A model generated the notes under the pieces. It was not told the DNA's origin and made no database searches. It saw only the letters and a list, made by a program, of their open reading frames with translations. Shown here in pieces: positions 755 through 3,518 of a stretch of DNA of 3,518 nucleotides. The position numbers and the translations under genes were made by a program. The DNA is from Escherichia coli (lineage in GTDB: Bacteria; Pseudomonadota; Gammaproteobacteria; Enterobacterales; Enterobacteriaceae): the NCBI RefSeq assembly GCF_003334355.1, contig NZ_QOWP01000070.1; one strand, written 5' to 3'. Each line of letters begins with the position of its first letter. Position 1 is the first letter of the stretch.

Positions 755-1747
755 ATGCAGAGCGATAAAGTGCTCAATTTGCCGGCAGGCTACTTTGGTA
801 TTGTGTTGGGGACGATAGGGATGGGATTTGCCTGGCGCTATGCCAGCCAGGTTTGGCAGGTCAGCCACTGGTTAGGGGATGGGCTGGTGATTCTGGCGAT
901 GATCATCTGGGGATTATTAACTAGCGCATTTATTACCCGACTCATACGCTTTCCGCATAGCGTGCTGGCGGAAGTTCGCCATCCAGTGCTGAGCAGTTTT
1001 GTGAGTTTGTTTCCGGCAACGACGATGCTGGTGGCGATTGGTTTTGTTCCGTGGTTTCGCCCACTGGCGGTGTGCCTGTTCAGTTTTGGTGTCGTGGTTC
1101 AGTTGGCTTATGCCGCCTGGCAAACTGCGGGATTATGGCGCGGATCTCACCCTGAAGAAGCTACCACGCCTGGACTGTATCTGCCGACAGTTGCCAACAA
1201 CTTTATCAGCGCAATGGCCTGTGGTGCGTTGGGCTACACCGACGCCGGTCTGGTGTTTTTAGGCGCAGGCGTTTTCTCATGGCTAAGCCTTGAACCGGTG
1301 ATCTTGCAGCGTCTGCGCAGTTCGGGAGAATTACCCACGGCACTGCGGACATCACTCGGCATTCAGCTCGCTCCTGCGCTGGTGGCCTGTAGTGCCTGGC
1401 TGAGCGTCAACGGCGGCGAGGGTGACACGCTGGCGAAAATGCTTTTCGGTTATGGACTGCTGCAACTGCTGTTTATGCTACGTCTGATGCCATGGTATCT
1501 CTCCCAGCCATTTAATGCTTCATTCTGGAGTTTCTCGTTCGGCGTATCTGCACTGGCAACCACCGGTTTGCATCTGGGGAGTGGCAGCGATAATGGATTT
1601 TTCCATACGCTGGCGGTGCCGCTGTTTATCTTTACCAATTTTATTATTGCAATACTGCTCATCCGTACTTTTGCGCTTCTGATGCAGGGAAAATTGTTAG
1701 TCAGAACCGAGCGCGCCGTTTTAATGAAAGCAGAGGACAAAGAATGA
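755..1747 (+). CDS. tehA: Tellurite resistance protein TehA; TDT-family inner-membrane anion transporter, homologue of plant SLAC1 channels
   Basis: Long plus ORF (track 647..1747) encoding a strongly hydrophobic multi-pass membrane protein that I recognise as TehA. Start placed at ATG 755 ([19 protein letters not shown]...), which gives 330 aa and has a purine-rich GAGTAAGAAG just upstream. In-frame ATG 743 and GTG 647 are alternatives. The TGA stop at 1745-1747 overlaps the tehB ATG. Confidence 0.9.
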
Positions 1748-2337: not shown

Positions 2338-2343
2338 CCCGGT

Positions 2344-2398
2344 AAGAACAAAGCGCGTGAAAATTCCCCACGCTGAGATGGTTTACTGTTCTTCTTTT
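2344..2398 (+). terminator. Weak candidate stem-loop with T-tract downstream of tehB
   Basis: AAGAACA (2344-2350) pairs with TGTTCTT (2387-2393), enclosing an inner GCGTG/CACGC stem (2355-2359 with 2369-2373), followed by CTTTT (2394-2398). The outer stem is AT-rich and the loop large, so this is not a canonical intrinsic terminator. Confidence 0.2.
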
Positions 2399-2497
2399 CG
2401 GTAAGCATATTTTTTATCGAAGGGATGTGAAATTAATCACAGTAGTCGAAGTTTTTTAGCAGCTTAACTAACTGAAATTTAACTACTGATGATTGAC

Positions 2498-2543
2498 TTA
2501 GCCCCTTTTTCGGCATTGACTATGTCGTCTGAAAAGGGGCTAA
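2498..2543. repeat. Perfect 12-bp inverted repeat (TTAGCCCCTTTT / AAAAGGGGCTAA) separated by 22 nt, in the tehB-ydcL spacer
   Basis: Arms 2498-2509 and 2532-2543 are exact reverse complements. The 7-mer ATTGACT occurs as a direct repeat at 2492-2498 and 2515-2521, the second copy inside the loop. An A6 run follows, not a T-run. Confidence 0.5.
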
Positions 2544-2594
2544 AAAATTTATTTTCACCAACACTTTTTTTGCCACAACACGAAGCGGCGCTTT

Positions 2595-2631
2595 TTGCTA
2601 TAACTTAAAAAGTAATATAATCATCTCAGGA
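2595..2631 (+). promoter_or_regulatory. Candidate ydcL promoter and ribosome-binding site: -35-like TTGCTA (2595-2600), consensus -10 TATAAT (2616-2621), Shine-Dalgarno AGGA (2628-2631) 8 nt before the ATG
   Basis: Exact TATAAT hexamer 19 nt upstream of the ydcL start, and AGGA at canonical spacing. The -35 match is weak and the spacer is only 15 bp, so the promoter call is tentative; the RBS is solid. Confidence 0.3.
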
Positions 2632-2639
2632 AACTATTC

Positions 2640-3308
2640 ATGCGTACCACATCATTTGCGAAAGTTGCAGCTTTATGCGGCTTATTGGCTCTGTCTGGTT
2701 GTGCCTCTAAAATCACCCAGCCAGATAAATATTCTGGTTTTTTAAACAATTACTCTGATTTAAAAGAAACAACCTCGGCTACAGGTAAACCTGTTTTACG
2801 TTGGGTAGACCCGAGTTTTGATCAAAGCAAATATGACAGCATCGTCTGGAACCCAATCACTTATTATCCGGTACCGAAACCGTCGACCCAGGTAGGGCAG
2901 AAAGTTCTGGATAAAATTTTGAACTATACCAACACCGAAATGAAAGAAGCGATAGCGCAGCGTAAACCACTGGTTACCACCGCTGGGCCGCGTAGTCTGA
3001 TTTTCCGTGGGGCCATTACCGGTGTAGATACCAGCAAAGAAGGGCTGCAATTCTATGAAGTGGTTCCTGTTGCATTAGTGGTTGCGGGGACGCAAATGGC
3101 TACAGGCCACCGTACCATGGATACTCGCCTCTATTTTGAAGGTGAGCTGATTGATGCAGCGACTAATAAACCGGTTATCAAAGTCGTTCGTCAGGGCGAA
3201 GGTAAAGACCTGAATAACGAAAGTACGCCAATGGCTTTCGAAAATATTAAACAAGTTATTGATGACATGGCGACCGATGCCACCATGTTTGACGTTAACA
3301 AAAAGTAG
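2640..3308 (+). CDS. ydcL: Lipoprotein YdcL (DUF3313-type, function unknown); probable outer-membrane lipoprotein
   Basis: 222-aa ORF. The N-terminus MRTTSFAKVAALCGLLALSGCAS is a signal peptide with lipobox L-S-G-C (2691-2702); Ala at +2 predicts Lol sorting to the outer membrane. Good SD, TAG stop at 3306-3308. Confidence 0.9.
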   Translation: MRTTSFAKVAALCGLLALSGCASKITQPDKYSGFLNNYSDLKETTSATGKPVLRWVDPSFDQSKYDSIVWNPITYYPVPKPSTQVGQKVLDKILNYTNTEMKEAIAQRKPLVTTAGPRSLIFRGAITGVDTSKEGLQFYEVVPVALVVAGTQMATGHRTMDTRLYFEGELIDAATNKPVIKVVRQGEGKDLNNESTPMAFENIKQVIDDMATDATMFDVNKK

Positions 3309-3316
3309 TTCCAGAC

Positions 3317-3341
3317 GCGCCATCGTTAGATGGCGCTTTTT
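3317..3341 (+). terminator. Rho-independent terminator downstream of ydcL
   Basis: Perfect 8-bp stem GCGCCATC (3317-3324) with GATGGCGC (3329-3336), 4-nt loop GTTA, then TTTTT (3337-3341). It starts 9 nt after the ydcL stop. Confidence 0.6.
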
Positions 3342-3518
3342 ATCCGGTGCGCCGTAAAACCCCATCCTTCAGGGCGGGGATATAAGGCGCGGTTTTCCAC
3401 CTGACCAGGTGTTTGCTGTTGTTCAATGTATTGGCGGATGACGGATATTGGCGCACCTCCGCAGCTACTGGCAAAATAGCCAGGACTCCACAAAACGCCT
3501 TTGTAGTAATACCTGACT
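3326..3518 (-). CDS. tnpA: IS200/IS605-family transposase TnpA (Y1 HUH tyrosine transposase), C-terminal fragment; gene continues beyond the 3' edge of the window
   Basis: Minus-strand frame open from the window edge to TAA (complement of 3326-3328). It translates to VRYYYKGVLWSPGYFASSCGGAPISVIRQYIEQQQTPGQVENRALYPRPEGWGFTAHRIKSAI*. The stretch LWSPGYFASSCGGAPISVIRQYIEQQQ matches the conserved C-terminal helix of IS200/IS605 TnpA that carries the catalytic tyrosine, as I recall it from IS608 TnpA (not an aligned comparison). The ORF track omits it because no start codon lies within the window. Confidence 0.6.
   Translation of the reverse strand, partial: VRYYYKGVLWSPGYFASSCGGAPISVIRQYIEQQQTPGQVENRALYPRPEGWGFTAHRIKSAI
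3344..3518 (-). mobile_element. End of an IS200/IS605-family insertion sequence (IS609-like), partial; exact junction with the chromosome uncertain, roughly 3309-3349
   Basis: Contains the TnpA C-terminus and an adjacent imperfect palindrome. A TTTAT pentanucleotide sits at 3339-3343; this family inserts 3' of short AT-rich target motifs. An IS609 copy downstream of ydcL is known in E. coli K-12. Confidence 0.4.
3349..3390. repeat. Imperfect palindrome: 19-nt arms (3349-3367 and 3372-3390) with a 4-nt loop; candidate subterminal hairpin of the IS200/IS605-family element
   Basis: Pairing the arms gives 14 Watson-Crick pairs plus one G-T, with mismatches spread through the stem. IS200/IS605 ends carry imperfect subterminal hairpins of this kind, recognised by TnpA. 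It overlaps the last codons of tnpA. Confidence 0.4.

Follow-up and report, generated by a model that had tools for sequence, protein, structure and literature searches.

The transcription of ydcL in Escherichia coli is already represented in published start-site and promoter tables, which document that this gene has a promoter and a transcript of its own. In the start-site map of Kim et al. 2012 (PMC3415461), 2 reads in one data set support a plus-strand start at NC_000913.2 1500452; it is attributed to ydcL, whose gene start is 1500481, and implies a UTR of 29 nt. The upstream sequence printed for this start is ACACTTTTTTTGCCACAACACGAAGCGGCGCTTTTTGCTATAACTTAGAAA, which ends in ...TTTTTGCTATAACTTAGAAA. 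A ydcL-only transcription unit, TU0-41775, appears among the 699 sigma-70 ChIP-exo promoters of Latif et al. 2018 (PMC5957442); only the identity of the unit is used here, and the coordinate column of that table appears to be wrong for plus-strand units. Genomic SELEX with the RpoS holoenzyme yielded a peak at 1500460, within the spacer between tehB and ydcL (Shimada et al. 2017; PMC5493296), and a reporter library in which 1805 native promoters were measured names ydcL among the activated promoters (PMC10665441). Unit TU0-41775 and the start of Kim et al. 2012 concern the same locus as the present analysis and lead to the same conclusion. What is added here, beyond the published unit, is the family-wide conservation of the -10 element and the finding that an exact TATAAT in the spacer is not the element used.

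The stretch of E. coli DNA analyzed, referred to as the window, is 3,518 nucleotides long and carries ydcK (on the minus strand), tehA, tehB, ydcL and the left end of IS609, in this order. In the ORF list, the sequence and the RefSeq annotation, tehA spans positions 755-1747 and tehB positions 1744-2337, both on the plus strand, and the tehA stop codon and the tehB start codon overlap in an ATGA at 1744-1747 (plus strand). The initial annotation had described tehA and tehB as translationally coupled, and this overlap is indeed present in both the ORF list and the sequence. The tehB stop codon ends at 2337 and the ATG of ydcL is located at 2640; ydcL itself, a DUF3313 lipoprotein gene, occupies 2640-3308 on the plus strand according to the ORF list and RefSeq. 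It is followed by a canonical intrinsic terminator at 3317-3343 (plus strand), GCGCCATC-GTTA-GATGGCGC and then TTTTTAT, in which a stem-loop (3317-3336) precedes T5. The tehB-ydcL spacer delimited in this way by the ORF bounds and the sequence, positions 2338-2639 on the plus strand, is 302 bp long and has a GC content of 36.8%, compared with 53% in tehA, 46% in tehB and 45% in ydcL; its reported length and AT-richness were thus both borne out. No feature is annotated within 2338-2639 in the RefSeq records examined, that of K-12 (NC_000913.3) included. Of 5426 complete E. coli genomes, 5394 carry at least 80% of the spacer's length. In strain 504239 the spacer matches the window with 100% identity, and K-12 MG1655 differs by 7 substitutions and one 1-nt deletion in a 381-bp alignment across the spacer. 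Window positions are converted to NC_000913.3 by adding 1,499,818 up to position 2451, and 1,499,817 from position 2453 onward.

When E. coli and K-12 are aligned with E. albertii, one deletion variant and three representatives of cryptic clades or other Escherichia, the spacer falls into three zones. Zone 1 (2338-2472) is an Escherichia-specific stretch of about 135 bp that is poorly conserved, with only 20 of 63 columns invariant between 2338 and 2400; it is missing in other genera, and is deleted in one Escherichia isolate (L003). Zone 2 (2473-2564) contains an inverted repeat that forms a hairpin, and zone 3 (2565-2639, plus strand) contains the promoter and the leader of ydcL. Zone 1 is fast-evolving, and the only element under constraint in it is the perfect CRP site discussed below. 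The spacer had also been thought unusually long for a compact genome. This impression does not survive comparison with other genera, in which tehB-ydcL spacers range from 138 to 594 bp; in most other genera that retain the adjacency they measure about 140-175 bp. We regard the tehB-ydcL spacer as an ordinary transcription-unit boundary: very probably, ydcL is expressed from its own extended -10 promoter, with its start at 2611 and a stable hairpin upstream.

The start assigned to ydcL by Kim et al. 2012 corresponds to NC_000913.3 1502428, which is an A at position 2611 of the window, on the plus strand, and implies a leader of 29 nt. It is the sole start within the spacer in their table, and the RpoS-holoenzyme SELEX peak lies 8 bp away from it. 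The sequence just upstream includes the extended -10 element TGCTATAAC (TGC-TATAAC) at 2596-2604 (plus strand), which is matched only once in the window. In the register set by the mapped start, its TG falls at -15/-14, its C (C2598) at -13, and the hexamer TATAAC (2599-2604) at -12 to -7; 6 nt separate the hexamer from +1. No match to a -35 hexamer was found upstream of TGCTATAAC.

This element is recognizable far beyond E. coli. We fetched 80 ydcL loci, one genome per species, and counted motifs over 81 sequences. The pattern TG[CT]TA[TC] occurs 42-49 nt upstream of the ATG in all 81 loci, drawn from many enterobacterial genera, and TTTGCTAT is conserved in at least 90% of them. As the -10 hexamer, 53 loci have TATAAC, 8 TATTAT and 6 TATCCT. 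The T at -12 and the A at -11 are both present in E. coli; at position -7, E. coli and most genera have a C, and Citrobacter and Salmonella (TATTAT, TATCCT) have a T. Since deep conservation and the independently mapped start agree, we place TGCTATAAC as the -10 element of the start at 2611. The proposal that ydcL is transcribed separately from tehAB is upheld by the mapped start, the sigma-70 ChIP-exo unit, the RpoS SELEX peak in the spacer and the reporter-library activity of ydcL, and also by the presence of the same promoter motif where tehB is not a neighbor and by the canonical terminator that ydcL has to itself. In mechanistic terms, ydcL would be transcribed on its own from the extended -10 TGCTATAAC, with no usable -35.

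A C at -13 is favored by sigma-S. At the ydcL promoter this nucleotide is C2598, and a sigma-S holoenzyme SELEX peak is found in the spacer. Because of the C at -13 and of the published holoenzyme data, the promoter would appear to be used in vivo by both forms of RNA polymerase; that is, the data suggest use by both sigma-70 and sigma-S.

The initial annotation had selected another element as the ydcL promoter, namely the exact TATAAT at 2616-2621 (plus strand), with transcription starting near 2628 and a leader of about 12 nt. The hexamer is there, and it is a perfect -10 that is invariant within Escherichia, with a weak TTGCTA 15 nt upstream; in addition, the holoenzyme and ChIP data are too coarse to resolve 17 bp. 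However, in the published start-site map checked for this purpose (Kim et al. 2012) the start is at 2611 and none is listed near 2628, so the mapped start uses TGCTATAAC instead, and TATAAT falls at +6 to +11 of the mapped transcript, inside its 29-nt leader. Conservation points in the same direction: among the 81 loci, a TATAAT is present at the equivalent position only in Escherichia and in one Pseudescherichia vulneris locus, whereas the upstream -10 is conserved everywhere. Nor is the hexamer unexpected by composition. The window contains one exact TATAAT, below the chance expectation of 2.4 per shuffle on average, and 176 of 200 shuffles had at least one. It has neither an acceptable -35 nor a TG extension, and at 2616-2621 it was not called by the promoter scan, for want of an acceptable -35. 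Finally, an mRNA beginning at 2628 would carry its Shine-Dalgarno sequence at the extreme 5' end. We therefore regard it as quite unlikely that TATAAT is the ydcL promoter; at most, it is a minor or weak secondary one. For AT-rich spacers in general this is a cautionary case, in which an exact TATAAT misled and the weaker-looking extended -10 was the element used. The extended -10 of ydcL is recognizable only by comparison across genera or from a start-site map.

Constraint within the spacer is strongest around the extended -10: in the Escherichia alignment, 44 of the 47 columns at 2565-2611 do not vary. Besides the -10, this block includes a family-wide conserved box, TTTTTTTGCCACAACAC, at 2565-2581 (-46 to -30, plus strand), which consists of a T-tract followed by CACAAC; its consensus is TTTTTG(C/T)CACAAC, and its distance to the -10 is fixed at 23 nt. 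This box cannot serve as a -35 because it is too far from the -10. Judging from the motif, candidate roles would be those of an UP-like element or of an activator site. Downstream, a GCAT-N4-TGCA-like leader motif is found in 52 of the 81 ydcL loci and has been lost in Escherichia, so that the TATAAT sits in a leader that is lineage-specific and remodeled. When 2611-2700 is folded, its first 35 nt remain unpaired. Transcription starting at A2611 would hence yield an unstructured 29-nt leader, with the AGGA at 2628-2631 (plus strand), 8 nt before the ydcL ATG, as the probable ribosome-binding site. A Shine-Dalgarno sequence is therefore present, as the initial annotation stated, but AGGA is adequate rather than strong.

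Zone 2 is dominated by the inverted repeat, which proved to be real: its arms, 2498-2509 and 2532-2543, are perfect over 12 nt. They belong to a hairpin at 2498-2543 (plus strand), identified by folding and conservation, with 13 + 6 bp, a 3-nt bulge and a 5-nt apical loop. The plus strand folds with -26.2 kcal/mol (z = -5.4) and the minus strand with -22.3 kcal/mol (z = -4.4). Across 7 Escherichia sequences, pairing is kept in 90% of the cells. The changes that occur mostly produce G-U pairs on the plus strand, where the minus strand would have A-C mismatches. With little variation among these 7 sequences, covariation was no higher than in shuffles. The tail of the hairpin is UAAAAAAUUUAUUUUC, i.e., A6 comes first and U-rich sequence only thereafter; consequently, the hairpin lacks a proximal U-tract and does not qualify as a canonical intrinsic terminator, and the terminator scan did not call it on either strand. 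Hairpins also end about 98-112 nt before the ydcL ATG in Citrobacter, Salmonella and Kluyvera, and canonical terminators occupy the same place in Trabulsiella, Yokenella and Pseudenterobacter, as well as in Enterobacter, there behind a different gene. The hairpin at 2498-2543 is probably the 3' boundary structure of the tehAB transcripts. Located upstream of a promoter block of about 90 bp, it would, on the plus strand, mark and protect the tehAB 3' end.

A weak stem and T-tract at 2344-2398, in zone 1, had initially been put forward as the element that separates the two units. Its predicted folding energy, -14.4 kcal/mol (z = -0.44), is like that of shuffled sequence. In six other Escherichia sequences this stretch has z-scores from -0.95 to +1.1, and is neither conserved nor significant, and the terminator scan of the plus strand was negative at 2344-2398. 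Overall, neither scans nor folds revealed a canonical terminator between tehB and ydcL, so that transcripts running on from tehAB could contribute to the expression of ydcL.

This raises the alternative that ydcL is expressed mainly by read-through, as the third gene of a tehA-tehB-ydcL operon, with the end at 2611 being minor or a processing product. Such an arrangement would fit with a tehB-ydcL stretch whose hairpin has no U-tract, and with the retention of tehB upstream of ydcL in many genera, namely Escherichia, Citrobacter, Salmonella arizonae/diarizonae, Klebsiella pneumoniae, Kluyvera, Buttiauxella and others. However, tehB is not the neighbor of ydcL in about 35 loci, from Enterobacter, Lelliottia, Leclercia, Raoultella, the Klebsiella oxytoca group and others, and these loci retain the same promoter block, directly preceded by the canonical terminator of another gene. 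In several genera in which the adjacency does exist, a canonical terminator lies between the two genes. For the spacer itself there are start-site and holoenzyme data, and 300 nt of untranslated RNA would be expected to favor Rho-dependent termination. In the data consulted from Adams et al. 2021 and Yan et al. 2018 for start sites and 3' ends, neither tehB nor ydcL is mentioned. On balance, we consider expression mainly by read-through to be very unlikely, and retain the independent promoter at TGCTATAAC as the principal source of ydcL transcripts.

It might also be supposed that the spacer encodes a product that has escaped annotation, such as a peptide of 39 amino acids, or a small RNA based on the hairpin or on a promoter-like and hairpin pair on the minus strand (from 2431 to about 2345). 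A 39-codon ORF does span the hairpin on the plus strand; according to the ORF list and the sequence it is found at 2489-2608, stop codon included, i.e., one position downstream of the 2488-2607 originally given. The ORF is intact in E. coli and sometimes annotated automatically, and its database entries, from E. coli and Shigella, are all automated calls of a "hypothetical protein". The hairpin at 2498-2543 is very stable, and on the minus strand TTCACA-16-TATGCT is followed by a hairpin with a T-rich tail at 2373-2355. Against this, the start codon of the ORF is ACG in one Escherichia lineage (L005) and ATA in E. albertii (L007), both with frameshifts; that is, start and frame are lost in two lineages. 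Substitutions among the Escherichia lineages are scattered over all codon positions with no third-position bias, and no Shine-Dalgarno sequence precedes the ORF. The hairpin lacks a U-tract on both strands, 2338-2400 is the least conserved part of the spacer and has no significant fold, and Kim et al. 2012 list no start site there. A search of all Rfam families at a permissive threshold returned chance-level matches only, the best with E = 0.84 and far below the gathering score, so no family was matched. The initial judgment that the 39-codon ORF should not be called a gene was sound: the frame is not conserved and there is no Shine-Dalgarno sequence. On this sequence evidence, the ORF at 2489-2608 is not a gene, and an unannotated product of either kind is highly improbable.

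The Escherichia-specific half of the spacer contains one element that had not been seen in the initial annotation, which had merely surmised that the spacer may carry regulatory inputs. The predicted CRP core palindrome TGTGAAATTAATCACA at 2426-2441 matches TGTGA-N6-TCACA with 0 mismatches, against a chance expectation of 0.12 matches per window at up to 1 mismatch, and gives that surmise some substance. None of the 10 core positions varies among 6 Escherichia lineages, whereas only 41-50% of the neighboring columns are invariant (P roughly 1e-4 to 1e-3 against background); the N6 does differ between lineages (AATTAA, AATAAA, AATAAG, AATGAA). Likewise, 4988 of 5407 E. coli genomes have the identical 30 nt at the site, and no more than 299 reach at least 99% identity over the 166 nt that surround it.

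The site may be functional, in that it controls an unmapped promoter of the spacer (antisense, or a second, upstream one for ydcL) or forms a roadblock or insulator, dependent on cAMP, at the tehAB-ydcL boundary. The perfect core, its invariance while the N6 and the flanks vary, and the conserved island in the E. coli population would be in line with such a role. The position of the site is difficult to reconcile with it: the center, at 2433.5, is at -177.5 from the mapped ydcL start, and no TANNNT hexamer is present at a distance compatible with a class I or class II promoter on either strand. Nearby, TANNNT hexamers are limited to the plus-strand TATTTT (2550-2555) and the minus-strand TATGCT, the sole candidate, which would put CRP at about -36.5. 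The CRP core is moreover absent from other genera that share the same ydcL promoter. The main text of the CRP SELEX paper does not mention the site, searching the literature for the sequence string did not bring it up either, and in the supplementary files of the Crp ChIP-exo paper ydcL is present only in the sigma-70 promoter table. A functional CRP site is, for these reasons, a tentative idea that we regard as doubtful.

In its broader form, the Escherichia-specific half of the spacer would be a previously undescribed cAMP-CRP element, which drives or represses an unmapped transcript or acts as a nutrient-dependent roadblock; this we deem unlikely. One example of a target would be the candidate promoter-like TTCACA-16-TATGCT at 2404-2431 on the minus strand, found by the promoter scan, whose -35 is a half-site of the CRP core. 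It points antisense into the 3' end of tehB and its TATGCT is retained in 5 of 6 lineages; no start is listed for it in Kim et al. 2012. In the roadblock version, the CRP site would set how much tehAB transcription continues into ydcL. The predicted site, conserved and perfectly consensus yet with no partner promoter, is a loose end, and as such it offers a small lead on a possible influence of carbon status on the tehAB/ydcL region.

Several other identities were considered and rejected. The segment with the hairpin and the CRP site is not a repeat family or the remnant of a mobile element, as it is single-copy in E. coli genomes by sensitive BLAST. Knockout of rob lowers ydcL under butanol stress (PMC7537768); a search of the spacer for a MarA/SoxS/Rob box with up to 3 mismatches returned no marbox, and matches in the window were fewer than expected by chance. 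By eye, none of the Pho box, Fur, FNR, Cra, IHF, NsrR, sigma-E and sigma-54 motifs fits the conserved box or the hairpin loop. A CTATAAC shared as -10 by tehA and ydcL was dismissed too, since the two copies are out of register and the correctly spaced hexamer for the mapped tehA start (window position 665) is TACTAT. As a whole, the analysis confirms tehAB and ydcL as separate transcription units, a result of limited weight for biology at large. The initial annotation was right in inferring separate transcription, and wrong in its assignments of the promoter and the terminator.

Compared with known systems, the cis elements of this spacer each resemble a described class and depart from it in defined ways. 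The predicted CRP site shares with class I and class II CRP operators the exact TGTGA-N6-TCACA, with conserved half-sites and a free N6; these operators are centered at -41.5, -61.5, -71.5 or a comparable distance, whereas the site in the spacer is at no such distance from a mapped or plausible start. Like the intrinsic terminators at operon ends, the E. coli hairpin is GC-rich, very stable and located between the end of one unit and the promoter of the next, but it has a long bulged stem and fails the U-tract criterion. With the extended -10 (TGn) promoters of sigma-70 and sigma-S, the ydcL promoter shares the TG at -15/-14, the T at -12, the A at -11 and the lack of a recognizable -35, and likewise has a C at -13 and a start 6 nt past the hexamer. 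It differs from them in having a C at -7 in E. coli, and an additional T-tract/CACAAC box 23 nt upstream.

Upstream of ydcL is a conserved TTTTTG(C/T)CACAAC box (window 2565-2581). Across the ydcL loci that we compared, it lies upstream of the -10 hexamer at a constant distance of 23 nt in nearly all genera. This distance is too great for a -35 element; comparison of the box with known factors gave no match.

The start site of tehA has been mapped by Kim et al. 2012 (PMC3415461) to NC_000913.2 coordinate 1498507, with a leader of 90 nt. This position corresponds to window 665, within the ydcK-tehA divergent region, where the in-register -10 is TACTAT. Separately, in supplementary table S1 of PMC5957442, the column labeled 'transcription_start_site' appears to show each plus-strand unit's right-hand end; for example, the ydcL entry, 1501149, is the end of the gene, and that for thrLABC is 5020. 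Its coordinates should not be taken for transcription starts.

Within the portion of the tehB-ydcL spacer that is specific to Escherichia is an exact CRP core, TGTGA-N6-TCACA (window 2426-2441), 177.5 bp upstream of the mapped ydcL start. Its half-sites are unchanged across E. coli, the cryptic clades and E. albertii, with variation in the N6 and the flanks; no partner promoter for this core is evident. The minus strand has a promoter-like TTCACA-16-TATGCT (window 2404-2431) and, some 25 nt further downstream on that strand, a hairpin resembling a terminator, GCGTGGGGAATTTTCACGC, whose tail is rich in T (window 2345-2373); the K-12 version of this tail has the better T-run. This pair would yield a roughly 50-nt antisense RNA against the region directly 3' of tehB. 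Conservation of this region is poor, and Kim et al. 2012 list no start site within it.

In Escherichia sp. MOD1-EC7003 the tehB-ydcL spacer is 174 bp long (2827-3000 of locus L003) and lacks the equivalent of window ~2343-2472, including the CRP site; the spacer hairpin and the ydcL promoter are both intact, and upstream of tehB the tehA match is a 70-residue fragment only. A few E. coli strains, among them E66 (H20) and MDR_56 (H45), have partial or two-place matches to the spacer, which suggests insertions or rearrangements within it. Five matches in the E. coli genome search were to plasmid records. Beyond the gene, ydcL ends in a canonical intrinsic terminator, GCGCCATC-GTTA-GATGGCGC followed by TTTTTAT (window 3317-3343), directly abutted by the left end of IS609 (window ~3344-3518, its start placed via K-12 coordinates), which carries the tnpA pseudogene yncK on the minus strand.

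A GCAT-N4-TGCA-like motif, e.g., ATGCATATCTGCA, is found in the leader of 52 of the 81 ydcL loci. Among L008-L082, it lies ~10-25 nt 3' of the conserved -10, right after the predicted start, i.e., at the equivalent of window 2612-2627. Escherichia has a TATAAT-containing sequence in its place; the motif may be an operator that was lost in this genus.
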